Shown here piece by piece: positions 1-21,188 of a stretch of 27,967 bases of DNA. The notes below the pieces were generated by a model, which saw only the letters and a list, made by a program, of their open reading frames with translations, ran no database searches and was not told where the DNA came from. Every line of letters starts with the position of its first letter. Position 1 is the stretch's first letter. The stretch is from a virus (taxonomy: Duplodnaviria; Caudoviricetes): positions 1 to 27,967 of IMG/VR virus record IMGVR_UViG_3300020044_007438; one strand, written 5' to 3'. A program made the position numbers and the translations under genes.

Positions 1-164
1 GGCCGCTTGCCCGGTGCCTTGAACTCGATGAACAGGACGCGGCCTTGATAGAGGAACATGCGGTCGGGCTGCCCTTTCTGGTTCTGCCCGGCGAGCTTGA
101 GTGACAAGCAGCCCTTGGCCTTGGCGTATGCGCAGACTGCCTGTTCGATGGTGGACTCTCTCAT
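1..164 (-). CDS. VRR-NUC domain nuclease (Holliday junction resolvase-like), runs off the window edge
   Basis: Not in the ORF track. Manual translation from ATG 164: MRESTIEQAVCAYAKAKGCLSLKLAGQNQKGQPDRMFLYQGRVLFIEFKAPGKR, with the E..IE / G.PDR / FIEFK.PG pattern of VRR-NUC proteins. ATGA overlap with the stop of 161..658. Confidence 0.88.
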   Translation of the reverse strand, partial: MRESTIEQAVCAYAKAKGCLSLKLAGQNQKGQPDRMFLYQGRVLFIEFKAPGKR

Positions 165-658
165 GGTTTCTGGGTTAGGGATTGGAGGGCTTCGTCTGCG
201 ATCTTTACCGCATTTGCTACGGGAGCTGGATATTCTGGTTGCGGAACTCCAAGCTCATTCTTAATGCTCCGCAACGCCTCAGCCAGCCTGTCGCGCTGTG
301 CGGTGACTTCCGCTATCTTACTGAGTCTACCGCTGGCTATTTGTTTCCATGTTCCGTTCTCGTCCCGCGCCTCGTCTCGCTCGCGCAAGGCTTCAACCCG
401 TTCAGCTTTCGCTTTAACCCACGCTTCTTGAGTTATTTTCAAAACCTCTCGCGCCTCGTCGCGCTGTGCGGTGACGGTGGTCCAACACCTAAGAGCATGT
501 TCAAGATCACAAATCCGTTTAGCTTGGACATCCGCATAGGCATTGGCGGCTTTCCGAAACTCTTTCCAAAATGTAGCATCTTGTTCTTTGCTTCCTATGC
601 GACCGTATTTATTGACAAACGCTTGCACGTTTTTAGGCATTGTTAGTTTTTCACTCAT
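161..658 (-). CDS. Hypothetical coiled-coil protein, 'ERDEARE/VTAQRD' modular family
   Basis: 165-aa ORF with ATGA overlaps at both ends; contains VTAQRDEARE, ERDEARD, VTAQRDRLAEAL and C-terminal LQSLT blocks shared with the neighbouring gene. Confidence 0.8.
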   Translation of the reverse strand: MSEKLTMPKNVQAFVNKYGRIGSKEQDATFWKEFRKAANAYADVQAKRICDLEHALRCWTTVTAQRDEAREVLKITQEAWVKAKAERVEALRERDEARDENGTWKQIASGRLSKIAEVTAQRDRLAEALRSIKNELGVPQPEYPAPVANAVKIADEALQSLTQKP

Positions 659-795
659 TGTGATTTCGGGGTTAGGGATTGGAGGGTTGCACGCAATCCC
701 TCATACGCTAGCATGGTATTGTGTCTGCCTTTGGCTGCGATAAGTATGGTTGCTGCATTTACGGCTTCCGCCAGCCTGTCGCGCTGTGCGGTGAC
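282..795. repeat. 26-bp identical direct repeat GCCAGCCTGTCGCGCTGTGCGGTGAC (282-307, 770-795) with a partial copy at 458-475; also an 18-bp repeat GGGTTAGGGATTGGAGGG (172-189, 669-686)
   Basis: Read directly from the sequence; these encode the shared VTAQRDRLA and LQSLT blocks. Confidence 0.9.
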
Positions 796-1338
796 GGCGG
801 CGAGTTGGTTCTCGGCACGCGCGGCCATTTCGACTGCTACCTGCCATTTGTTTTGCCATCCGATGTTCTCCGCCTGCGCCTCACGCAAAAGCTCCCATGC
901 AGCCAGTTCGCATTGAGTGTCGTTCTCCTCCTCATCATCCGTGCGCCCGCGCCCCTCGGCAATGGACTGCCAGCGGATAGACTCCTCCCGCGCCTCGTCG
1001 CGCTCGCGCTTCAATACTGCGTTGGTTACTTTAAGGACTCGCTTGTATGCTTTTGCGTTTTCGGAATTCTTCCGCGCCTCGTCGCGCTGTTCAATCGCTT
1101 CACCGAGCGCATCCACGCACCGCATAGTCGCGGCAATTAGTCCAGATTCTCCCCATAGTTGGCTATTGGGATGGCCGCCAAGCTCGGCGCACATTTTAGC
1201 CTCAATTTTAACAAGGTGTTCCCGCGCCTCGTCCCGCTCGCGTTCTAGTTTGAGGGCGAAGTCAATATCAACAATCCATCCATGATTATCTGACCATTGG
1301 CTTATTTTATCGGTTTCAGGTGTTGGTAGTGTGTTCAT
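655..1338 (-). CDS. Hypothetical coiled-coil protein, 'ERDEARE/VTAQRD' modular family
   Basis: 227-aa ORF after an A/C-rich leader; TPETD...LERERDEARE, EQRDEAR, RERDEARE, VTAQRDRLAEA, LQSLT. Confidence 0.8.
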   Translation of the reverse strand: MNTLPTPETDKISQWSDNHGWIVDIDFALKLERERDEAREHLVKIEAKMCAELGGHPNSQLWGESGLIAATMRCVDALGEAIEQRDEARKNSENAKAYKRVLKVTNAVLKRERDEAREESIRWQSIAEGRGRTDDEEENDTQCELAAWELLREAQAENIGWQNKWQVAVEMAARAENQLAAVTAQRDRLAEAVNAATILIAAKGRHNTMLAYEGLRATLQSLTPKSQ

Positions 1339-1360
1339 AGTTTTGTGTTGGTTGGAGAAT

Positions 1361-1414
1361 ATCGAACAGGTCGATACACTGAACGCATTGCGTCAGTGAT
1401 CTTGGCTGTTGTGC
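1361..1414 (+). mobile_element. attC: Integron attC-like recombination site 1 (54 bp)
   Basis: R'' ATCGAAC (1361-1367), 5-nt spacer, arm GATACACTGA pairing with TCAGTGATC (1393-1401) with one extra base at L'' position 4, a second unpaired A, a short CGC/GCG stem-loop, 6-nt spacer, R' GTTGTGC (1408-1414). Confidence 0.78.
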
Positions 1415-1593
1415 AGAGAATCAGCCGCCAGTTCGCGGAGAGCTTGCCGTTTGATGTCAGCCTTACGAAGCCATTCACCACACAGCGACCGATATTGATT
1501 GCCGTGCCAGCCTCGCCGCCCGTTGAGATATTTTATCAGATCCGCCGCGCTCATGTCGGACGGAGCCGCTTTCGTTTTCGTTGGTGCTTTCAT
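1393..1593 (-). CDS. Small hypothetical protein (66 aa, MKAPTKTK...) ending inside attC1
   Basis: Part of track ORF 1393..1623; start moved to ATG 1593, which forms an ATGA overlap with the stop of 1590..1829. Confidence 0.6.
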   Translation of the reverse strand: MKAPTKTKAAPSDMSAADLIKYLNGRRGWHGNQYRSLCGEWLRKADIKRQALRELAADSLHNSQDH

Positions 1594-1850
1594 TTGGATT
1601 TTGGATGCCTTCCGGTTTTCCATTCTTCGCGCCCAATGATCCGGTGGTCATGGATGCGGTGGCGGTGTTCGCCGCACTTGATACAGACTTCCTCGCTCGG
1701 TGATCCAAAGCCGTTGATTGCTGTGATCGACCAGTCATGGCGGCATCGAAAAAGATGCACAACAAGACGTGTCATCCAACCACTATGAGCGGCGGAGTTT
1801 GTTACGAGATTGGAGTCGATTGCGCTCATAGTGGCGGATGCACATTTGCG
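1409..1850 (+). mobile_element. Putative integron gene cassette (442 bp) carrying antisense-oriented phage ORFs
   Basis: R' at its start (GTTGTGCA, 1408-1415) is the exact reverse complement of R'' at its end (TGCACAAC, 1756-1763), as expected for a cassette that recombines as a circle. Confidence 0.72.
1590..1829 (-). CDS. Small Cys/His-rich hypothetical protein (79 aa) starting inside attC2
   Basis: C.H.W...C..CG pattern (CRHDW...CIKCG), possibly metal binding; ATGA overlaps at both ends. Confidence 0.65.
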   Translation of the reverse strand: MSAIDSNLVTNSAAHSGWMTRLVVHLFRCRHDWSITAINGFGSPSEEVCIKCGEHRHRIHDHRIIGREEWKTGRHPKSK

Positions 1851-1856
1851 TTATCC
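1757..1856 (+). mobile_element. attC: Integron attC-like recombination site 2 (100 bp)
   Basis: R'' GCACAAC (1757-1763), spacer AAGAC, L'' GTGTCATCC pairing with L' GGATGCAC (1836-1843) with one extra base at position 4, perfect 12-bp arms CCACTATGAGCG (1780-1791)/CGCTCATAGTGG (1823-1834), spacer ATTTGC, R' GTTATCC (1850-1856). Confidence 0.85.
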
Positions 1857-2320
1857 ATGAATGAAGAGCCACTAGACGGGGACAGTTCCGAGGAAGTTTT
1901 CGCACAGATCGGCATCACGTTGCTTCTTGTGCAAGATTTCGAGTTCATGTTTGAACGTGCGTTGAAGCTTGTTTTCGCGGATTCGCATGAGCTAACGGCG
2001 GAGATTGTATTCAAGAAGGACAAGAGAAGCCTTGGCCTTTTGATGAGTGATTTACGGTTTTTCGCTGCCTCAAGCTGTTCCCGCGCCTCGTCCCGCTGCT
2101 CGGTGACAGCGGCGAGTTCCTCCCGCGCCCTGTCCCACTGTGCGGTGACGATGGTGAGTTCTCGTTCCAGACAATCAGCGTGATCGGTCATAATAGCGAA
2201 CGCCATTTCAGCGTCTTTTTGATCGGATTTTTTAACTACATGATCTGTTCTCGGTGTGTCGTTCATCTTGCGGATTTGTTCGTGGATTGGGCTGTCGCTC
2301 CATGTTTGGGGTGTGTTCAT
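1826..2320 (-). CDS. Third 'ERDEARE' family protein; C-terminal ~75 aa read antisense through the cassette remnant
   Basis: TPRTD...LERELTIVTAQWDRARE...AVTEQRDEARE, then a Ser-rich tail; stop inside attC2; ATGA overlaps at both ends. Confidence 0.7.
   Translation of the reverse strand: MNTPQTWSDSPIHEQIRKMNDTPRTDHVVKKSDQKDAEMAFAIMTDHADCLERELTIVTAQWDRAREELAAVTEQRDEAREQLEAAKNRKSLIKRPRLLLSFLNTISAVSSCESAKTSFNARSNMNSKSCTRSNVMPICAKTSSELSPSSGSSFMDNANVHPPL
1857..2057 (+). pseudogene. Truncated cassette-type ORF fragment (MNEEPLDGDSSEEVFAQIGITLLLVQDFEFMFERALKLVF...KRSLGLLMSDLR)
   Basis: ATG lies immediately after R' of attC2. It reads like a helical globular protein for ~67 codons and then runs into the antisense of the ERDEARE repeats; no closing attC was seen. 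End coordinate is approximate. Confidence 0.55.
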
Positions 2321-3024
2321 CGGCTCGAAACGATTGGTTTTTTGAATGCGCGGATGCCGTATGCCTTAGTTAGCGTCTCTGGATCTTCGCCTTGGCTTTC
2401 AAGTGCTTTGATCCAGTCCAATACTGGCGTGCGGCGAACAGTAATTTCGCAAGCAGGGCGAAGATTCATAAAGACCTTGTCTTCGTCCATCACCTCAAAA
2501 TCCCACGCGAACCGCACGCCCTCGGCGACCTTGGTTGCGGCGACCTCGTTGGATGCTTGCAGTTTCTCGGCAATAGCACGCTTTGCAGCAAGGACGGCAG
2601 CGATGCCACCCTCCTCGGCGGCTTCACGGGCGGCCCGGGCTGCCTCGAACGCGGCACGCTCGGCGGCCTCCTTCTCAGCCTTGATCCGCAGCACCTCCTC
2701 GGCGTGCTTGCCGACAAGCTGCTTGATGCGTCCCTCCTCGGCGGTGATCTCGATCAAAAACTCGGCGGCGGCCTGGTCGATCATCTTGCCGATGCGGTTG
2801 ACCGGCTCCTTTACGAGCTTCCTGCTCTTCTCCACCTCGATCCGCATCGCGGCGAGCTGGCGGGTGTGGAACTGCGCCCGTGCGCTGTCGTCGTTGTCGC
2901 CGACGGCGGTGATGCCTGCCGAGTTGGCGAGGATCTCAGCTTTGCGAGCTTCGGCCTCAGGCGAGATGGTCAGTTGGTAGCCATCCCCAGCGAGGATGAG
3001 GGGCATTAGTTCGGTGGTGTTCAT
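2317..3024 (-). CDS. Coiled-coil phage early protein (235 aa), possibly DUF1351/Gam-like
   Basis: Track ORF 2317..3099, start moved to MNTTELM (ATG 3024, ATGA overlap). Long helical region (RKLVKEPV...ID...EEGRIK) and a C-terminal WDFEV.D...GIR block; family assignment tentative. Confidence 0.6.
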   Translation of the reverse strand: MNTTELMPLILAGDGYQLTISPEAEARKAEILANSAGITAVGDNDDSARAQFHTRQLAAMRIEVEKSRKLVKEPVNRIGKMIDQAAAEFLIEITAEEGRIKQLVGKHAEEVLRIKAEKEAAERAAFEAARAAREAAEEGGIAAVLAAKRAIAEKLQASNEVAATKVAEGVRFAWDFEVMDEDKVFMNLRPACEITVRRTPVLDWIKALESQGEDPETLTKAYGIRAFKKPIVSSR

Positions 3025-3194
3025 GGTTGGTTGATTTCTTCGATTGTTTCTTGTTGGTATCCATACCCAAGCAGGGCTGGCACGATGACATCCTGCCATA
3101 GCTCGTGAATGTTTAAGTCGTCATTGCCAACGGCGATCTCGACGGCGTGGCTGTATTTCGGTTCTGAATGCGTTGTCTCTAGTCGTATTTTCAT
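3021..3194 (-). CDS. Small hypothetical protein (57 aa)
   Basis: Not in the ORF track: MKIRLETTHSEPKYSHAVEIAVGNDDLNIHELWQDVIVPALLGYGYQQETIEEINQP. Fills the gap, has an A/C-rich leader, and its stop overlaps ATG 3024. Confidence 0.7.
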   Translation of the reverse strand: MKIRLETTHSEPKYSHAVEIAVGNDDLNIHELWQDVIVPALLGYGYQQETIEEINQP

Positions 3195-3213
3195 GTTGTT
3201 TGTTGGTTGGTGT

Positions 3214-3402
3214 CTATTTGTAACGAAGAGCGGTTTGCCTGCCGGGCTTGCGTTTCTTGTCGCGCTCCTTTTTCTCGACTAAGAGCTGGAGAGCGCGGAT
3301 ATGGTCGCGGGTGCCGGGTTTGTCAATGTCGGGCGACTTTCTGAGGTCACGCAGGATCGCATTGATCGTGGCCATGCTTAGGGTGTGGTCGTAGGTCTTC
3401 AT
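3214..3402 (-). CDS. Small basic hypothetical protein (62 aa, MKTYDHTL...)
   Basis: Track ORF 3214..3453, start moved to ATG 3402 (ATGA overlap). Confidence 0.65.
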   Translation of the reverse strand: MKTYDHTLSMATINAILRDLRKSPDIDKPGTRDHIRALQLLVEKKERDKKRKPGRQTALRYK

Positions 3403-3656
3403 GCGTTCTTGTTTTGGTTGATTGCCAAGAAATGCCGTCCTTCCTTGCCGCACTTATCACAACCGAAAAGTCGCTCTAGCCTAGAGATTTCCCTTCGTTC
3501 GGACTCGCAAATTAGTTCCGTGAATGTCTGCACTGTTTCGCCAGTCACAAGGGATAGTTTTGACCTTAAGGGGCGAGCGCAAATATCCATGTTCCTGATG
3601 TATTTGTTGCGTTGGCAATGTTTGCAATTTTTGCAAATAGGGGTGTATGTGTTCAT
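3399..3656 (-). CDS. Cys-rich small protein (CxxCxxC...C...C...CGxEGRHF)
   Basis: 85 aa, ATGA overlaps at both ends, Cys pattern suggests metal binding. Confidence 0.7.
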   Translation of the reverse strand: MNTYTPICKNCKHCQRNKYIRNMDICARPLRSKLSLVTGETVQTFTELICESERREISRLERLFGCDKCGKEGRHFLAINQNKNA

Positions 3657-3826
3657 GGGTTCGGAAATGGTCGGGGTGTGTCCTGCGTGATGTGTCCGGT
3701 GCAGATGCAGCAGCCGGTCAGCAGGAGGCGGCAGTGGTATTTGTGGCAGTGTGCGCAGTGGTTCGGTGGGGTGACGCGCTCGCGGGCTTTGGCGGCCTTC
3801 TCGATGAGCGCCTGCCGGATGCTCAG
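3653..3826 (-). CDS. Small Cys/His-rich hypothetical protein; start uncertain (possible CTG at 3826)
   Basis: 3' part of track ORF 3653..4033 (HCAHCHKYHC...CCIC); fills the gap and its stop overlaps ATG 3656. Confidence 0.45.
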   Translation of the reverse strand: MSIRQALIEKAAKARERVTPPNHCAHCHKYHCRLLLTGCCICTGHITQDTPRPFPNP

Positions 3827-4296
3827 AACGGCTGATTGGCCGTCGCCTTGCCGGGGTAGTCCCAGAGCGTCCAGGGCAGGCGATGGAGCAGGATCGGCGG
3901 CAGTCCGTCGCGGTCTGCCCGGATCGCCAGCCAAATAACGTCCGAATCCAGCGGATCGCGCATCACGCAGAGCTGACTCTCGAATGCGTTCATCGCTTCG
4001 TGCCACGTCTCGACCTCCTGTGGGGCGTTGCACGGGGTCAGTGGGATTGCCTCCCCCTCCGGCTGCGAAAGGCTGCGGAGCGCAGCGTGGTGCGCCTTGG
4101 TGGCCACCTCCGCAGGTTGCAGCGGGGTCTTGGCACTCAGCACCAGCCCCGCCCTGCGCTTTCCCGCCGCTGGCGGGTCGATGCGGTTGATGGCTGCCTC
4201 TAGCTTGAGGTCAGGCTGGGCGGCGGGTGGTGCGGCTGCCGGTGGCTGTGCAGCGGCGGCTTTTTTGGCGGCGATGATTTCGGCGATGGTTGGCAT
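3823..4296 (-). CDS. Hypothetical protein (157 aa, MPTIAEIIAAKK...)
   Basis: Track ORF 3823..4365; start moved downstream of the terminator hairpin. Ala/Pro-rich N-terminus. Confidence 0.7.
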   Translation of the reverse strand: MPTIAEIIAAKKAAAAQPPAAAPPAAQPDLKLEAAINRIDPPAAGKRRAGLVLSAKTPLQPAEVATKAHHAALRSLSQPEGEAIPLTPCNAPQEVETWHEAMNAFESQLCVMRDPLDSDVIWLAIRADRDGLPPILLHRLPWTLWDYPGKATANQPF

Positions 4297-4316
4297 GGCG
4301 GTTGGTAGTCTCGCCC

Positions 4317-4349
4317 AGAAAACCCCACCCCGCATCGCGCAGGGTGAGG
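4317..4349 (-). terminator. Rho-independent terminator after the SSB-like gene
   Basis: Minus strand CCTCACCCTGC-GCGAT-GCGGGGTGGGG-TTTTCT: 11-bp stem with two G-U pairs and a short U tract. Confidence 0.7.
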
Positions 4350-4377
4350 CGTGCCATGCAAGCACTTGTCCCGGAGA

Positions 4378-5061
4378 TCAGTAATCGGAGTGGCCGAGGA
4401 TGTCAGCCAGCTCGGTGAGAGCAGCCACGAGCGCAGCGTCGTCGCCCTTGTTGTCGGCCTTGGCTTTCGGCAGCCACTTGTCGATCAGGCTGGCTACGCC
4501 TACCTCGTCAACCTCGCCAAGAGCCTTGCCCTTGTATTTGCCGACATGGACGATGACCGACTCCCAGCCGGACGCTTCGGCTTTCGCCTCGGTCTGCTCG
4601 GTAGGTGCGTCGGTGTCGCGGTCGCGGATGCGCTTGTATTTGCCGCTTGGCTTGAGTGCCTTGTCCTTGTCGGGGGCGATGAACGAGATGTTCGCGTATG
4701 TGCGATCATCTTTCGTCTCATGCTGGATGATGAGTTTGACCCCGTGGCCGATCAGTGATTCCATGTCGAACTCGTCGAGTTCAAGCTGGGTCAGGTCGCG
4801 CCCCATCATTTTCTTGAGGTCTTTCCGCAGAGCTGCCTTCTCGTTGAGCGATGGCGTGTAGCCACGGCTCCAGATGCAGAAACGGCGGTCGTTTTCCTCA
4901 TCCATGCACTCGGTTTCAAAGACGAGTCGGAACTCTTCTTTTTCCCCGAATGCAGTCATGCGCTTTTTCAGCTCGGTTATGTCCACCAACACACCCTTGA
5001 TGGGGGCATCGGTTGCGGGGTGAGGCTGGAAGTTACTGTTTCTTTTTTCGCTTAGTTTCAT
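4378..5061 (-). CDS. Putative ssDNA-binding/replication protein with a C-terminal GKYKG mini-domain
   Basis: Start moved to MKLSEKR (5061). RLVFET...YTPSLNEKAALRK...FDMESLIG...YANI resembles phage SSB-like OB-fold proteins; C-terminal VHVGKYKGKALGEV resembles the small FGKYKG domain. Confidence 0.62.
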   Translation of the reverse strand: MKLSEKRNSNFQPHPATDAPIKGVLVDITELKKRMTAFGEKEEFRLVFETECMDEENDRRFCIWSRGYTPSLNEKAALRKDLKKMMGRDLTQLELDEFDMESLIGHGVKLIIQHETKDDRTYANISFIAPDKDKALKPSGKYKRIRDRDTDAPTEQTEAKAEASGWESVIVHVGKYKGKALGEVDEVGVASLIDKWLPKAKADNKGDDAALVAALTELADILGHSDY

Positions 5062-5062
5062 A

Positions 5063-5083
5063 TTGTTGTTGTTGTTGTTGTTG
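5063..5083. repeat. (TTG)7 / (CAA)7 microsatellite directly upstream of the start codon at 5061
   Basis: Read directly from the sequence. Confidence 0.9.
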
Positions 5084-5090
5084 GAGAGGG

Positions 5091-5339
5091 TTAGCGGCTG
5101 GAGCAATGCACAAGCACTGCGGTGGCGACGAGGATTAGCAGGGCGACGGCGAGGCTTGCGGTAATGCGCCCGCTTGCGTCGGGTGCCGGGTGTGCGTAGG
5201 TCGAGCGGCGCACGGGCTTACTCAGCTCGTCGATCTGGAATCGAAGCAGCGGGTCAGGTTGATACCTAAGCTGCTCGTCGAGGTTGACTGGACGGAACTT
5301 GTCCTGCCCGGGTGTGATGTCGTTGTTGTCTGTTTTCAT
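5091..5339 (-). CDS. Small protein with a C-terminal transmembrane helix (82 aa)
   Basis: MKTDNND... ending ITASLAVALLILVATAVLVHC; A/C-rich leader. Confidence 0.65.
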   Translation of the reverse strand: MKTDNNDITPGQDKFRPVNLDEQLRYQPDPLLRFQIDELSKPVRRSTYAHPAPDASGRITASLAVALLILVATAVLVHCSSR

Positions 5340-5371
5340 GGTGTTATTGGTGGTGAGAACAATGTTGCGCA

Positions 5372-5578
5372 TTATTCGCGCTCAGGTAAGTTTTCGAGAA
5401 CTATCTCGCGCACTTCGTCGATCTCAGCCTCCGTAAGCTCGATGTCGTCGCTGTCGTAGTGTGCATGTAGAATCTCGATGTCGGCGTGCTCTTCGGGCTG
5501 CATGTATGTGGCTGGCGTGCCAGGGATGTATCGCGCCTCAACGGTGATCTCAATCTCGCGGTAGATGGTAATGGTCAT
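5372..5578 (-). CDS. Small acidic hypothetical protein (68 aa, MTITIYREIEITVEARY...)
   Basis: 3' part of track ORF 5372..5689; ATG 5578 forms an ATGA overlap. Confidence 0.72.
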   Translation of the reverse strand: MTITIYREIEITVEARYIPGTPATYMQPEEHADIEILHAHYDSDDIELTEAEIDEVREIVLENLPERE

Positions 5579-5751
5579 TTCGCGTATTTTTGAAGGTTGT
5601 CCATGATGCGCTTGATTTGCTTGGCTGCGGTAGCGGGCGGAATGTCGCCGCGCTCGCTGCATACGCGAATACTTTCGACGGCCTCGCAAGAGCGGTAAAG
5701 CGCGGCAGCCAGAGCTGACAGGCGGGCGGGGGTGATCGTGTCTTTGGTCAT
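5575..5751 (-). CDS. Small hypothetical protein (58 aa)
   Basis: Not in the ORF track: MTKDTITPARLSALAAALYRSCEAVESIRVCSERGDIPPATAAKQIKRIMDNLQKYAK; its stop overlaps ATG 5578. Confidence 0.65.
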   Translation of the reverse strand: MTKDTITPARLSALAAALYRSCEAVESIRVCSERGDIPPATAAKQIKRIMDNLQKYAK

Positions 5752-5767
5752 GTTAGTAAGAAGGATG

Positions 5768-5788
5768 GCCGAGGGATCGAACCTCGGC
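5768..5788 (-). promoter_or_regulatory. Intergenic hairpin with a tRNA T-loop-like loop (GCCGAGG-TTCGATC-CCTCGGC)
   Basis: Perfect 7-bp stem, 7-nt TTCGATC loop, no U tract; function inferred only. Confidence 0.5.
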
Positions 5789-5796
5789 GGGGTGGG

Positions 5797-6003
5797 TTAG
5801 CGGGCAAGCATGTTAACGAACTCACCAGTGAGCTTGCGGTAGAACATCGCGGTGTAAGTGCGGCGTTGGCGACCTGTTGGATTACTGACTCCAAGGTAGA
5901 GGTTGGATTCAAAGCCTTTTTTCAGAAGCTCTTCAGCAAGGAATTTTCCGGCTGGATCAACTGACTGCATAGTGAATGTGCGGGCGAAGGATTCGGTTGT
6001 CAT
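5797..6003 (-). CDS. Hypothetical protein (68 aa), probable first early gene
   Basis: MTTESFARTF...; follows the AT-rich intergenic region; A/C-rich leader. Confidence 0.7.
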   Translation of the reverse strand: MTTESFARTFTMQSVDPAGKFLAEELLKKGFESNLYLGVSNPTGRQRRTYTAMFYRKLTGEFVNMLAR

Positions 6004-8609: not shown

Positions 8610-10664
8610 TTATTCGTTTGATATGACTTTGAAAACTCCAAACTGTCGGATGTCGTAAGTCACATCTGTTGCGGTAAAATCTATAAAAGCGTCAATAATA
8701 ACCGGATCTGTGATTACCGGATTGATGACTGTTCCTGTTCCTGTTCCTGCTGCGGTGGCGATGAATCGCGTTCCAACCGTGTTGTTTACTGCCCCGACAA
8801 GCGTAAAGTCTGTTGTGCCAACCGTTAGGATTTCATATTGTTTCCCAGCCACCATTGAAGTTGCATTAAGGCTGGTGACAAACGGCGGCACGGTAAATTC
8901 CGGCGAGATAAAAAGCCCGGTGATCGGGTTAAAATTACCTGTTCCCAAGTTGCTACCTTGTGAGATTGCCCTAAAATTAACAAAGCTGGCATTCGACCCA
9001 GAAACGCGCCCTAAGATCGTAATGTCTCTGAGTGTATGTGTGCCGCTGACCGGACGGAGACGGCAAGCGAATCTTACTCGCTCGCCCTGTTTCAAACCTG
9101 TAGTAGCGCGGATGTAAATTGATCCTGCTGTATTGGCGACGGATGGGACTACGCGAACGCGTTGCCACGTTGTCCCGTCTGCGTCGGTCTGCGCTGACCA
9201 TGTATCAGTAAATGCAGATCCTCCTTTTGCCCATCCTGTCGGGATAGTGGCTTGGGATGGGGAGTTGTTGGTCGTCACCCATATCGCCGACGATGATGGC
9301 GGCACGATGGTTGCGGGCGGTCGGGCTGCGTATGAGCTGGCGATCTGCGTGTTGATTGCCACCGCCAAGCGGTGTGCGTATGCAGGTGTAGGGTGGATTC
9401 CATCCCACAATGACTCCGTAGTGGCAAAGCCACCTGACATAGTAGCAAGCGCGTGGGTGTCGATAAGCGTCACGCCGAGGGATGTCGCGATAGCGGAGAG
9501 TGATGCGTTAGCGGTGGCAATGTTGTCGCGCCGTGTGGTAGCAGTGGCGGATGACTTGTCTAGGGCAACGCCCGTGCCTGTTCCTGCCGATCCCGATTTC
9601 ACAAATACGGTGCCGACGTTGTTATCGGCAGCTCCAAAGCTCGTCCATGTGGTTGTCCCTGCGGAATAAATTTCGTAGGTGTTTCCGTTGGTCATCGACG
9701 CTGCAGCGGTTGCCCCGCCTCCATACGGGGTGCAGTTAAAGGCGATGACGGGTAGCCCGGTGGATACTGCTTTCGTCCAGTAGCTTGTGAGTCGGGTAAT
9801 GAGGGTCGCCGCCGATACGCCGCCCGTGATGATGTCATTGATCCCGCCTTCCAACACGAGCATTTCCGCGCCGGAGTTGAGGGCGTTGTCGAGAGGATAC
9901 ACGCCGGATGCGCCATCGGTCAGTCCCGGGAGTTGGTATCCTGAATACCCAAAGGTTTTCTGTGATGCGGATTCGGCTGTTCCGTAGTTTCTGACAAGAC
10001 GCACGCGATGGCCTGAGATGTGTTCAAGCCACGCTCCATACCCCGCGCCTGTATCATGGATTCGCGGTTGGTGGGTGGTGTCGATTGCCGAAGATTGAGC
10101 GGTGATGGATGTCCCGACGAGGGCAACACGAAGCGGATTAGTGAGATCAGCACGGCCTTGGTCGCCTTTGTCGCCTGTCGCGTAGAAGTCGAACGTGACG
10201 ACCTCGTTGTTGTCGAACGCAGAGCCGGAAACGTATGTCCCGTTGATGTGGTGATGGTTGCCCTCGTCAGTGACGCTGGTGACGAGGAAGTTGAAATGGC
10301 TGGTGTCCGCGTTCGAGTTGCTGCGGATCACGACCCGCGCCTTGATGGTCGAGGTCGAGTCGTCGATCAAGGCCAGCAGTGCGCTGGTGTTTGTGCCGTC
10401 GAAGTCGGTGTCACGAATCGAAATCCGCGTCACGGCGCTCAAGGTCGAGCTGTTGAATTTCAGATAACCCGCACTCGGTGATCCGGCGCTTGTGCTCGTG
10501 TCGAACGTGTATTTCAGACCGGCACGGTCGCCTTGCGCTCCGGTGGCTCCGGTGGCTCCGTTGGCTCCGGTGGCTCCGGTGGCTCCGGCTGGCCCACGCG
10601 ATCCGATAGCTACTGAAAATTCGGTAGACTCGTTATTTGCCGTGAATGTGATGTTTGTGGCCAT
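8610..10664 (-). CDS. Tail spike/fibre with collagen-like repeat and SGNH hydrolase domain
   Basis: 684 aa; (G-x-y)n near the N-terminus; SGNH blocks VGTSIT, GYSG, EGGIND, DGIHP; beta-rich C-terminus; last gene of the tail module. Confidence 0.82.
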   Translation of the reverse strand: MATNITFTANNESTEFSVAIGSRGPAGATGATGANGATGATGAQGDRAGLKYTFDTSTSAGSPSAGYLKFNSSTLSAVTRISIRDTDFDGTNTSALLALIDDSTSTIKARVVIRSNSNADTSHFNFLVTSVTDEGNHHHINGTYVSGSAFDNNEVVTFDFYATGDKGDQGRADLTNPLRVALVGTSITAQSSAIDTTHQPRIHDTGAGYGAWLEHISGHRVRLVRNYGTAESASQKTFGYSGYQLPGLTDGASGVYPLDNALNSGAEMLVLEGGINDIITGGVSAATLITRLTSYWTKAVSTGLPVIAFNCTPYGGGATAAASMTNGNTYEIYSAGTTTWTSFGAADNNVGTVFVKSGSAGTGTGVALDKSSATATTRRDNIATANASLSAIATSLGVTLIDTHALATMSGGFATTESLWDGIHPTPAYAHRLAVAINTQIASSYAARPPATIVPPSSSAIWVTTNNSPSQATIPTGWAKGGSAFTDTWSAQTDADGTTWQRVRVVPSVANTAGSIYIRATTGLKQGERVRFACRLRPVSGTHTLRDITILGRVSGSNASFVNFRAISQGSNLGTGNFNPITGLFISPEFTVPPFVTSLNATSMVAGKQYEILTVGTTDFTLVGAVNNTVGTRFIATAAGTGTGTVINPVITDPVIIDAFIDFTATDVTYDIRQFGVFKVISNE
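10519..10596 (-). repeat. Collagen-like coding repeat (GPAGATGATGANGATGATGAQGDRAG), 9-bp CCGGTGGCT units
   Basis: Read directly from the sequence; boundaries approximate. Confidence 0.85.
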
Positions 10665-18293: not shown

Positions 18294-18926
18294 TCAGGAA
18301 AAAGACGCTTGATCTTGATGAAGTTTTTCAGGAGCCGCCGTGGTCGCCGCATCATGCCGATAATAGTGCAGGATTTTCGGTATGTGAACGGTCGTTCTCG
18401 CTCGCTTGCGTGCCTGTAGCGCCCATGCGCGATCCTCTCCGTAGTTCGTCTCTAAGAACTGGCAGCCTGCCACTGTGTCGCGTTTCCACGCGCAAACGTG
18501 CCACGCATCGCGGTTGGTGATGCCGCCGGGAACGAATCCATGATCGCCCTGCCCTAGTTGGAAGTCCACGACGCTCTGCTTGCCGTTGTAGGTTGCCCCT
18601 TGGAGGAACGTAATCACGTCGGCACCGCTGGCGGCAGCGGCCAGCAGCTCCTCGACGTAGCTGTCTGCGATGTCGTCATCATCATCGACGAACGCGATGT
18701 ATTGCCCCCGCGCGATGTCGAGCAGTGCCTGCCGCTTCGCGCCGATGCTACGGGTGCGGTTGTCGCTCAGCATCAGATGCTCGACCTGCCCCGAAGTCCT
18801 CGGCGCGGAACTCAGATCCTCGGTGCGGGTTGGTAGGGCTGCGATCTGCTCCTCGATCCTCCACTGGAGGGTTTGCAGTTGTCTCTCGCGTCCTGGTATC
18901 GTCGGGGTCAGTATTGATAGGATCAT
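18294..18926 (-). CDS. Glycosyltransferase family 2 (GT-A fold)
   Basis: MILSILTPT start; IGAKRQALLDIARGQYIAFVDDDD (DxD), GEDRAW, LHYY. Confidence 0.9.
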   Translation of the reverse strand: MILSILTPTIPGRERQLQTLQWRIEEQIAALPTRTEDLSSAPRTSGQVEHLMLSDNRTRSIGAKRQALLDIARGQYIAFVDDDDDIADSYVEELLAAAASGADVITFLQGATYNGKQSVVDFQLGQGDHGFVPGGITNRDAWHVCAWKRDTVAGCQFLETNYGEDRAWALQARKRARTTVHIPKILHYYRHDAATTAAPEKLHQDQASFS

Positions 18927-19020
18927 GTGTTTTGTTCTTTCTGAAAATTGCGTCGTAGTTGTTGCGGTAGGCCGGTGCGTCACCCAGCCTGTGCCAGTCG
19001 CCTTTGTGGGTCTTGCTCAT
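18748..19020 (-). CDS. Possible tiny phage ORF (MSKTHKGDWHR...YRNNYDAIFRK)
   Basis: ATG 19020 overlaps the upstream stop and the first ~31 codons fill the gap; the frame then runs on overlapping the GT2 gene, so the 3' part is doubtful. Confidence 0.4.
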   Translation of the reverse strand: MSKTHKGDWHRLGDAPAYRNNYDAIFRKNKTHDPINTDPDDTRTRETTANPPVEDRGADRSPTNPHRGSEFRAEDFGAGRASDAERQPHP

Positions 19021-21188
19021 ACGGTTTGATTCCTTACCCAGCATCGACCGACGACGTGGTAGTTGATGCCGGATTCTTGGACTGCTTTCAGCACGCCCGG
19101 CGCGTCGATGTCATGGCCGCCGAAGAATCCTTCGGGTTTCACCTTGGGTAGCCATGCCGCGATGTCGGCCTTGACGCTTTCGTAGTCGTGCGCTGCGTCG
19201 ATGAAGATGCCGTCAGCGGATTCGTCCGGCTGATGTTTCGACTCTGCCACGCTTTCGTTGCGGCACTTGGTGATTTTCCGGCTGCCGCAGTTTTCGCGGA
19301 ACTCATCCCACACGTCCACTTGCCCGGTGTCGGGATCGCCAGCAAAGGTATCGACGCAGATGAGGGTTGCTGATTGCTTGCCGATGTCGTCGAGTCGGTC
19401 GCGCAGGTAGATTGCGCTCTTGCCCTTCCAACTGCCGACCTCGATAAATGTCCCGTCGATAGGCAGGGTGTCCGCAACGTAGTCGTAGACATCGCGGAAG
19501 TCGAACCATCCTGCGATATCGCTAGATACCTTTTGCCCCGCGGTCAGTCGAGCCAAGATGTTCTTGCCGATCTCGTAGTTTGCCGGCGCGTTGCTACGGG
19601 CGTATGTCTCATCCATCTCAGCCTTGCCGAACGCTGGGTGCAGATGCTCAAAAGTGAGGTCGCGTGCGTCAATGACCACGCCGTCACGGAAGGCGCATTC
19701 AGAGAACCAGTTGTCTGAGAACATGCTGAAAAACTCAGGATGGAAGAGGTATCCTTGATCTTCGTATCGGGCGCGGGTCAGGATCGCCATGCAAAGCAGG
19801 TCATCGGTGCGGTGGCCGTCACTGATAGCTAGGACGGCGGGCTTGGAGGTGTCGCCTAGTGCCTGCAAAATTGCAGTGTCCCAGCCTTGGAAGGGTTCCC
19901 AATCGTCAGAAAGTTGCAATAAGACCTCGCCGCGTGAATGTTTTGCACATTCGTTCCAGGCATCAACGGGGCCACCATTGCCGCGAACTAGGCAGTGACG
20001 AGTAACCATCAAGGGCATAGCCTCGGGGTCGTCTGCATCAAGTCCGAAGATATGCTCAATCGCATCTGGTGTGTCTGCCATGCGAAGCCAATCGTTTTTG
20101 CACCTCCATGCTTTGCCAGCTCGACCGCGTGTCGCGTGAAGGAGGCTGATCTTCGCGCCGTGCATGATGAAATGGTTGATCTCTTGCGCGTCTGCCTCCT
20201 CGCCCCTGCGGTTTGCGCGTAGAGCCATCGCCCGCAGGCTTACGCCTAATCTGCCGTAATACATGCGGCGAAGGTTCCAAGGCGGTTCTGGAGGCATTCT
20301 CAGCGCAATCATGGCCTCTGTCCAGCCGAGCGAGTGTTGCGGCGAGTTCATAAGGCAGGAAAGTCCAAGCTCTCCGTAGGCTTCTCTCCGAGATGGGTCG
20401 GTGGAAAGCGCCTGTAGCAGAAGGTTGTGCTTTGTATCTTGGTCGCCTGCCAGGCGAGCCAGTTGGAATAAAGCCTCGTAGCGTTCATTCTGTCCTGCGT
20501 CCGGTAACTGCGCAAATTCCATCGCCTTCGGTATCGCCTCGGCGTTTCGATCTAATGCGATCAGAGATTGGAAAACATGGAACTTTTGCGACACTGTGCG
20601 CTCGTCCTCTGGGATGCTCTCTAGGATGCGCAGGTTGCGCTCGTCCCGGCTGGCGTGGCGCTTGCCAGACGCATGAACGATCTCGGCGCCGTCAAAACGC
20701 ATGTGGTTTGTTCCTTCGTCAAATTTTAGGCATTCGTGGATGGGGTTCTCCCATCGTGCGCAGCCGTTGCGCCAGATCCGCTCACGCCAGTTGACTACGC
20801 CGTCCTCTGGCACAACGTAGCGCATCAGCACGCCGTCAATGTCTTTGTCGCCGATGTCCTCGATAAGCTGCCGGATCTGCGCGATTGAGTCGGGCGTGAT
20901 TACGTCGTCGGTGTCTGCCCACATCAGCCAGTCGCCGGTGGCAAGATCGCAAGCGGTATTGCGGGCTGCCGCGAAGTCATCGACGTGCGGCCAGTTGTGG
21001 ACGTTGTGATACTCGCCAGTCTTGCAGCCGCGAATTTTTGCAATATCCAGCGTGCTGTCTGGCAACTGGTTGCCGATTGCCCGCACCACGATGATCTCGT
21101 CGGCGATCTTCTCAAAATGATCGAGGAAGCGGTTGATGTAGTTCTCGGCGTTGCCGGTGATGACGCAAAGGCTCAGTTTGTTTTTCAT
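19017..21188 (-). CDS. Multidomain GT2 + TPR-like + second GT-A-like domain + class I SAM methyltransferase
   Basis: LSLCVI...DFAAARN...WADTDD...IHE (GT2); helical repeats (DPSRREAY); ISLLHATRGR...LSDDW...EHLHP (GT-A); IEVGSWKGKS...IDAAHDYE...GGHD (Methyltransf_24-like). Confidence 0.88.
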   Translation of the reverse strand: MKNKLSLCVITGNAENYINRFLDHFEKIADEIIVVRAIGNQLPDSTLDIAKIRGCKTGEYHNVHNWPHVDDFAAARNTACDLATGDWLMWADTDDVITPDSIAQIRQLIEDIGDKDIDGVLMRYVVPEDGVVNWRERIWRNGCARWENPIHECLKFDEGTNHMRFDGAEIVHASGKRHASRDERNLRILESIPEDERTVSQKFHVFQSLIALDRNAEAIPKAMEFAQLPDAGQNERYEALFQLARLAGDQDTKHNLLLQALSTDPSRREAYGELGLSCLMNSPQHSLGWTEAMIALRMPPEPPWNLRRMYYGRLGVSLRAMALRANRRGEEADAQEINHFIMHGAKISLLHATRGRAGKAWRCKNDWLRMADTPDAIEHIFGLDADDPEAMPLMVTRHCLVRGNGGPVDAWNECAKHSRGEVLLQLSDDWEPFQGWDTAILQALGDTSKPAVLAISDGHRTDDLLCMAILTRARYEDQGYLFHPEFFSMFSDNWFSECAFRDGVVIDARDLTFEHLHPAFGKAEMDETYARSNAPANYEIGKNILARLTAGQKVSSDIAGWFDFRDVYDYVADTLPIDGTFIEVGSWKGKSAIYLRDRLDDIGKQSATLICVDTFAGDPDTGQVDVWDEFRENCGSRKITKCRNESVAESKHQPDESADGIFIDAAHDYESVKADIAAWLPKVKPEGFFGGHDIDAPGVLKAVQESGINYHVVGRCWVRNQTV

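Follow-up and report, generated by a model that had tools for sequence, protein, structure and literature searches.

A unit of 442 bp at positions 1409 to 1850 of the window (the whole stretch of DNA analysed, a complete viral record entry of 27,967 nt that is linear and about 40% complete as a genome) is probably an integron-type cassette whose phage genes lie opposite to the attC polarity, and it was likely inserted, and is likely still exchanged, by an IntI supplied in trans at the G|TT of folded bottom-strand hairpins (the bar marks the crossover). Integrons are known as bacterial gene-capture devices and, lately, as stores of anti-phage genes. Here integron chemistry appears refitted to phage operons, with reversed cargo in which DNA-modifying genes abound, exact natural filled and empty sites, and phage-borne integrases.

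Genomic context of the cassette

The terminase, portal, protease and capsid genes of the window are all on the minus strand, and the attC unit lies among a series of small minus-strand genes flanked by a conserved anchor gene and a conserved endonuclease gene, which bound a variable slot. The features of this region are:

3 to 164, minus strand: endonuclease gene (phrog_93), conserved, bounding the variable slot and cut by the contig end
655 to 1338, minus strand: the phage gene transcribed next downstream, with a start region directly adjoining R'' of attC1
1361 to 1414, plus strand: attC1, a short site with a 14-nt centre, crossover G1408|T1409; its L' arm gives ORF B its TGA stop
1393 to 1623, minus strand: ORF B, 76 aa, crossing the crossover as AAC (Asn), with its stop inside attC1; partial homologues in L001 and L182
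1409 to 1850, plus strand: the cassette, 442 bp, G|TTGTGCA ... TGCACAAC-attC2-G|; homologous units in L001, L182, L183 and Logan contigs
1590 to 1829, minus strand: ORF A, 79 aa, Cys/His-rich (C-x-H-x-W, C-x-x-C), with its start and first 22 codons within attC2
1757 to 1856, plus strand: attC2, with a 60-nt centre holding a 12-bp stem, crossover G1850|T1851; contains the ATGA stop/start overlap of ORF C and ORF A
1826 to 2320, minus strand: ORF C, a phage coiled-coil gene with ERDEAR-type repeats, its 3' half running antisense through the sense-cassette remnant and its stop in attC2
1851 to 2057, plus strand: sense-cassette remnant, comprising the 5' end and the 67 initial codons (1857-2057) of a 173-aa protein, truncated and fused to a phage gene
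2317 to 3024, minus strand: anchor gene, conserved, upstream of the variable slot, with 43 relatives in viral contigs and a weak PHROG match

The slot was 0-898 bp long and held no attC in 13 of the 14 relatives checked (of 43); it measured 2,153 bp in the window and 2,263 bp in the close relative L029, with attC sites in both. The array of L029 (6990-8500) is longer and has decayed sites, among them one attC nearly identical to that of L001; it also ends in G|AT, and its coiled-coil gene is fused to a short AT-rich stub much as at the right end of the window's array.

A family of short direct repeats (window 276-307, 355-403, 444-487, 764-807, 978-1004, 1062-1110, 1212-1238 and 2071-2161) encodes ERDEAR / AVTAQRD coiled-coil motifs across three small genes. 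Contigs of relatives join between these repeats, which points to a second, homology-driven route of mosaicism in the same slot. Elsewhere in the window, glycosyltransferase and glycosyltransferase-methyltransferase fusion genes (18294-21188, minus strand) lie between the capsid and neck genes, and a 9-nt tandem repeat with a collagen-like GAT run (10528-10596) lies in a 684-aa tail-fibre-like gene.

Anatomy and polarity of the attC sites

The geometry R''(AAC)-5 nt-L''(8)...L'(7)-6 nt-R'(GTT), with paired L boxes, was scanned by script and fitted only two places in the 27,967 bases; in 100 dinucleotide shuffles the average was 0.08 sites, and two never occurred. The boxes of attC1 read R'' ATCGAAC, spacer AGGTC, L'' GAT-A-CACT, L' AGTGATC, spacer TTGGCT and R' G|TTGTGCA, and those of attC2 read, in the same order, TGCACAAC, AAGAC, GTG-T-CATC, GATGCAC, ATTTGC and G|TTATCCA, the L boxes pairing 7/7 at each site. 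The preliminary description had reported full attC anatomy at 1361-1414 and 1757-1856, and direct reading, the script, the shuffles and a covariance model all bear this out. It had also noted that R' of the first site is the exact reverse complement of R'' of the second, which was confirmed at 8/8 bases for the unit 1409-1850. This complementarity is real and is a cassette mark, but it is symmetric and does not set the polarity.

The L-box rule fits attC2 on either strand. Two extrahelical bases lie on the R''-L'' arm of both sites, one at L'' position 4 and one a top-strand A two bases past L'', and plus polarity was assigned because of this second base on the R'' arm and because of the covariance model. 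The model was built from the bottom strands of 45 bacterial attC sites, and since these were chosen by the same geometry rule it is a weaker test than IntegronFinder's, which is a different model; attC1 scored 29.9 bits and attC2 28.9 bits (E about 1e-5), against 12.6 bits for the opposite strand of attC2 and 11.0 bits for the best unrelated place. Folding gave z-scores of -2.5 to -3.2 on both strands, which folded about equally, and folding energy was set aside as uninformative on polarity.

The first extrahelical base on the bottom strand is T in attC1 and A in attC2, where G is usual though not essential. Among 235 bacterial sites of this attC group the top-strand base at this position was G in 221, C in 12, A in 1 and T in 1, counts in which the seed pattern favours G. 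The earlier suggestion that the A and T imply a divergent IntI is accordingly not supported: top-strand C occurs in only 12/235 sites of the group, and in the available text of PMC2727003 IntI1 tolerates any base at this position of the VCR site in recombination with attI, at a 1.2- to 2.7-fold loss. A bottom-strand T there lowered attC x attC deletion 68-fold in the VCR test, according to the same portion of that paper, and by analogy excision at attC1 may be slow because of its bottom-strand T.

Rfam gave no match in window positions 1-6000, and a promoter and terminator scan around the sites stayed at chance level, with nothing terminator-like at the palindromes. GTTCGAT at position 143, the only upstream copy, was considered as a left partner for attC1 and rejected; it lies inside the conserved endonuclease gene and also occurs in relatives without attC.

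Coding content

The seven protein homologues of ORF A share an invariant Cys/His core but have unrelated N-termini, and the N-terminal part that varies among them is the part encoded inside attC2. Synonymous and other codon changes numbered 21/4 against L001, 11/6 against L182 and 16/18 against L183; the ORF A frame is free of stops in all three, and all three plus-strand frames contain stops in each of them. As the frame of ORF A is conserved and the plus frames are broken, the cargo is antisense to the attC polarity. The placement of both ORFs of the unit on the minus strand thus holds, with coding of ORF A indicated by the codon changes, the stop pattern and the homologues. A crude measure of ORF cover had favoured the sense strand for the window unit and was overruled by this comparison, and a plus-strand ORF at 1345-1788 was rejected as cargo since stops interrupt it in homologues. 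ORF B may truly start at a later ATG near 1593.

The usual rule that a cassette ORF is read towards its own attC does not describe 1409-1850; it describes only the remnant at 1857-2057, a plus-strand ORF that was absent from the preliminary description. This ORF begins 7 nt after the attC2 crossover G, is 94% identical to P0008 over 67 codons, and belongs to a protein with five full-length homologues. From its position, 1851-2057 appears to be a truncated ordinary sense cassette. Its protein family had no match in bacterial genome contigs and one weak match in 401 genomes of the class tried, among which no close P0008 gene was found.

Pfam and PHROG gave nothing firm for ORF A, ORF B, ORF C or the remnant, and no match at all for ORF B. 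ESM Atlas returned unnamed clusters only, plus a DUF1660 lead at 0.88. In the database search the ORF A family was confined to one viral contig and three metagenome contigs.

Exchange at the cassette borders

A pattern search of viral contigs found copies of attC1 at 94-96% over 47-54 nt in nine contigs and a longer 88% match in a tenth. All ten switch neighbour at G|TT, with seven different next cassettes, and in 8/10 the ORF that enters is terminated by the same TGA within attC1. Logan contigs from five public runs behaved alike at both ends of the unit: some matched attC1 to 1410 and then unlike sequence, some matched the cassette body 1407-1766 with a different attC arm before it and a different attC interior after it, and others matched from 1590 to 1853-1855 and diverged just beyond attC2. 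The proposed exchange at G|TT is thereby observed among relatives, with neighbours changing at both borders of 1409-1850.

Homologues of the unit carry the R'/R'' pair GTTGTGCA/TGCACAAC (window, L183) or GTTCGGTG/CACCGAAC (L001, L182), so that both ends co-vary. The L182 unit has no upstream attC and ends at G|AT, which matches the GWT attG consensus given in the available text of 10.1101/2022.09.11.507474. In L183 such units are mixed with two near-identical attC sites heading sense-looking inserts, and in L184 the ORF A core is present with no detectable attC.

No excision joint or circle was found in the assembled contigs of relatives from the five runs, nor was the empty site of the window's own cassette, for which the query was offset by one base. 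The runs containing window sequence had shares that were all 0.13 or less, and none of the runs listed was RNA. Host-type genomes had been named as a place to find similar sites; the attC1 pattern was found in none of the 401 genomes of the class tried.

Antisense cassettes in other phages

A wider family was gathered by one attC pattern of a related subfamily (121 viral stretches, 137 loci, 80 with flanks), a choice biased towards methyltransferase cassettes and towards alignment ends on the attC side; several of the loci are near-copies of one another. The scanner and covariance model miss the AT-richer sites of TJE1 and P12002L, and all counts are lower bounds for one attC group. The same pattern gathered 100 bacterial-genome stretches; the 80 listed are mostly Pirellulaceae/Planctomycetota, with some Verrucomicrobiota. 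To judge from these bacterial pattern matches alone, the host group would be Planctomycetota/Verrucomicrobiota-like.

After 12 overlapping duplicates had been dropped, R' and R'' matched perfectly in 50/76 adjacent pairs (permutation mean 4, maximum 11); a site's own R'/R'' pair was perfect in only 11/207. Across 78 oriented loci, 44/158 internal alignment ends fell at most 12 nt from a crossover, against about 2% expected, a figure that the choice of pattern inflates for ends at the attC side but not for the 12 starts at offset 0. A 759-bp cassette that carries a Mom-like gene occurred in four contexts with exact junctions, L002/L003 (the closest relatives of the window phage) and three others; in seven relatives its empty site is contiguous, and this site coincides with the stop codon separating two genes. 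A 652-bp methyltransferase cassette occurred in five contexts, again with exact junctions. Of 11 junction queries, one recovered empty sites.

The phage units also share an orientation. T exceeded A on the top strand in 52/55 phage units versus 49/134 bacterial units, and PHROG matched 17/54 antisense ORFs versus one weak match among 53 sense ORFs. The 17 antisense matches comprised 12 methyltransferases, one Mom-like, one Lar-like and three unknown proteins, a composition in which the seed pattern favours methyltransferases. An antisense ORF crossed the left crossover in 34/55 units, 32 of these 34 reading AAC there, as ORF B and ORF C do; in the remaining 21/55 it stopped before the left crossover or was absent. 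Matches to bacterial-genome loci were found for 5/55 phage units, two of them long matches on short contigs with phage-like genes.

Some phage sites depart from this layout. The tested attC sites of TJE1 are sense to its genes, those of P12002L are mixed, the L043 site points with its anchor gene, and a few other pattern loci are off the antisense trend. Virus Rctr41k (KX853513.1, L331, 4680-10842), which is not in the tables available from Qi 2023 (PMC9892861), has a gene annotated xerD for an IntI-like protein, and after it come attC-like hairpins and methyltransferase genes; its hairpins, read by eye and scoring only 10-12 bits in the covariance model, are apparently sense. Given these exceptions (TJE1, P12002L, Rctr41k, L043), the antisense layout belongs to this phage group and not to all phage attC sites.

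Two further observations concern array structure. In L076 (269-921 and 4099-4817), a contig with at least eight attC sites, a query for the joined empty site also matches, at 97%, the stretch that follows the methyltransferase cassette's attC, since the upstream attC arm is almost identical; cassettes may have been shuffled over short distances within this contig. Bacterial arrays L257, L260 and L261 repeat several times a 410-450 bp cassette beginning GTTCTGAT, possibly gene-less.

Integron integrases

The window record (about 40% complete) contains no intI. IntI over cut-off was absent from the window, from 42 anchor-gene relatives (L029 not among them) and from the 10 records sharing attC1, a result that upholds the integrase-less array of the preliminary description for this set of records. 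The locus fits a CALIN, with at least two nearby co-oriented attC sites and no intI nearby in a record that is 40% complete; the window does not have the intI and attI beside the array that define a complete integron.

The IntI profile search covered part of the pattern loci (39 + 47 + 50 records), in which TIGR02249 was over cut-off in 4/39, 1/47 and 2/50, plus one record at 207 bits. A complete integron, with intI and attI beside the array, is present in G004, G005, G031, G036, G078, G130 and G133, and probably in G024. The six phage IntIs aligned (of eight) keep the catalytic R-K-HxxRH-Y residues and the IntI insertion, and phage IntI matched the IntI structure 2A3V at E 1e-58. An attI-like junction with the first cassette lies 32-62 nt from the intI start in 5/8 loci. 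The phage intI is opposite to the attC polarity, as is usual, and is therefore the last gene of the phage operon. G004, G005 and G031 (3/3 checked) have terminal repeats, terminase, portal and capsid, and G004 and G005 also encode a separate phage integrase. Nine attC sites precede intI in G005. The longest phage array seen here is in G036 (L296, 4378-12017), where intI closes a series of fifteen co-oriented attC sites, each at the head of a small phage gene.

In a tree with 22 bacterial-genome IntIs the eight phage proteins require five changes (at least three forced) and sit on long branches. Two bacterial-assembly IntIs (L328, G146, and L316, G154) group with those of phages and may mark prophages or misbinned phage contigs.

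Proposed mechanism and alternatives

IntI cuts folded bottom strands at R', and single-stranded exposure favours folding (PMC2727003, PMC8946536, available text of each). At the window locus an IntI from the host or from another phage would act on the folded bottom-strand attC hairpins at G|TT. Antisense cargo would need no Pc, as the phage early operon would transcribe through the array towards attI and intI, and the coding strand would be the recombinogenic bottom strand. Each ORF would start inside the attC of its cassette and stop in the R' box or in the attC next door, always in one frame, so that a new cassette could be translated at once; frame discipline may have been selected for this reason. 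The short attC1 would likely be a slow-excising docking point at the far end; the array would also have acquired at least one ordinary sense cassette, which was truncated afterwards; and the cargo may serve against restriction.

With no IntI in the window, the relatives or the attC1 sharers, supply in trans is likeliest for this lineage. The earlier proposal of a borrowed host integrase stands in that the cassettes are real, exchange occurs at G|TT and no own IntI was found, but the evidence does not single out a host source: seven phage records of the same cassette type encode IntI, which makes a co-infecting or resident phage an equally possible one.

It is unlikely that the window's phage carries its own intI and attI in the missing 60% beyond position 1, with the locus as the tail of a complete phage integron. 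In IntI-bearing phages intI does lie downstream in transcription, which here is off the fragment's left end; yet IntI occurred in 0/39 anchor-gene relatives (5 at least 90% complete), in none of L002, L026 and L033, and in 0/10 attC1 sharers, and the array, which adjoins intI in the IntI phages, is here bordered to the left of attC1 by 1.36 kb without attC or intI. The truncated sense cassette fused to a phage gene at the right end, the similar foreign-looking stub at the same slot of L029 and the want of a left partner for attC1 would suit a passive relic, a piece of host array caught once by illegitimate recombination (a capture of the kind proposed in the available text of Qi 2023, PMC9892861), its interiors later replaced by phage genes and IntI inactive. 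Such an origin may describe how this one array began; as an account of the locus it is improbable, given that neighbours switch exactly at G|TT at both borders, that close relatives have filled and empty sites, and that nearly all units hold phage-type cargo, with little sharing with bacterial arrays (5/55).

A true minus polarity, with the integrase cutting R'' on the top strand and the genes sense to the functional site, is very improbable. It would be allowed by the symmetry of the R'/R'' match, by the fit of site 2 to either strand, by the ORF A homologues, which change just past R'' and carry different attC interiors, and by the top-strand recombination at R'' that does occur if the extrahelical bases are moved (PMC2727003, available text); the second extrahelical base and the covariance model favour plus, however, cassettes that are shared retain their attC, with breaks at G|TT, and the intI/attI geometry is canonical for plus. 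Occasional R''-side exchange may explain the swapped attC interiors. That the palindromes are chance hairpins or transcription signals, to which the nearly equal folding of both strands could be referred, has almost no probability in view of the shuffles (two sites in 0/100), the lack of any terminator-like or Rfam match, and the comparative evidence.

Significance

An exchangeable cassette with reversed phage cargo offers a site-specific route for phage mosaicism and a two-way link between phage and host cassette pools, of which this array keeps a sense-cassette remnant, as well as natural material for asking how cassettes are made. A broader reading is put forward tentatively, as a possibility that we rate below even: tailed phages of PVC bacteria might run their own integron pool, in which cassettes are built anew from phage genes with reversed attC, tuned for in-frame translation after any other, and shuffled by repeatedly domesticated or borrowed IntIs, forming a bank of counter-defence genes (DNA methyltransferases, Mom-like, Lar-like) as a counterpart to the anti-phage cassettes that host integrons carry. 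If true, natural sequences would show cassettes being born, in the one gene core that occurs with two different R-box pairs, with several attC interiors and in one case without any attC, and the open question of cassette origin would become testable.

Comparison with known systems

A literature search covering few subscription journals found no description of antisense phage cassettes, of the fixed frame or of phage-adapted integrons, Qi 2023 being the sole relevant paper it brought up on the antisense layout, and none of these features appears in the available text of PMC4889954, PMC7439510, 10.64898/2026.03.17.712381 or 10.64898/2026.09.14.751636. The available text of Qi 2023 (PMC9892861) reports, for 10,705 genomes, 17 CALINs and 4 temperate phages with intI, with TJE1 and PH101 as typical arrays. 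Those phages are alike in having attC clusters without intI and methyltransferase cargo, and there IntI1 recombined five phage sites; they differ in that this text describes neither an antisense layout nor a fixed frame, and neither a comparison of filled with empty sites nor an intI adapted to phages. That part of the paper thus already establishes that phages hold attC clusters and captured integrons and that IntI1 acts on phage sites; the antisense layout was not found in print.

The integrons of Pirellulaceae/Planctomycetota and Verrucomicrobiota share with the phage arrays the attC subfamily, its geometry, an intI opposite to the cassette polarity and the R'/R'' match within a cassette. 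Their cargo is mostly sense, whereas that of the phages is antisense, phage-type and overlaps attC, and the phage IntIs form several long branches apart from most Planctomycetota/Verrucomicrobiota IntIs. Insertion at attG, as in SALINs (10.1101/2022.09.11.507474, available text), likewise has IntI inserting cassettes at GWT, here G|TT in L002/L003 and G|AT in L182; it was shown there in bacterial chromosomes, and here the target is a phage operon in which the upstream stop codon is kept. In the inverted-integrase integrons of Treponema and others, as described in the available text of PMC4889954, intI and cargo are co-directional, as they are here, but that type flips intI relative to attC, and the phage type keeps the intI/attC relation and flips the genes. 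The synthetic attC placed in coding sequence (PMC7439510, available text) encodes protein and still recombines; it was engineered, and the sites here are natural, with start and stop codons inside. By membership the window locus is a CALIN that, judged by its sequence, would work like an integron cassette array with reversed cargo.
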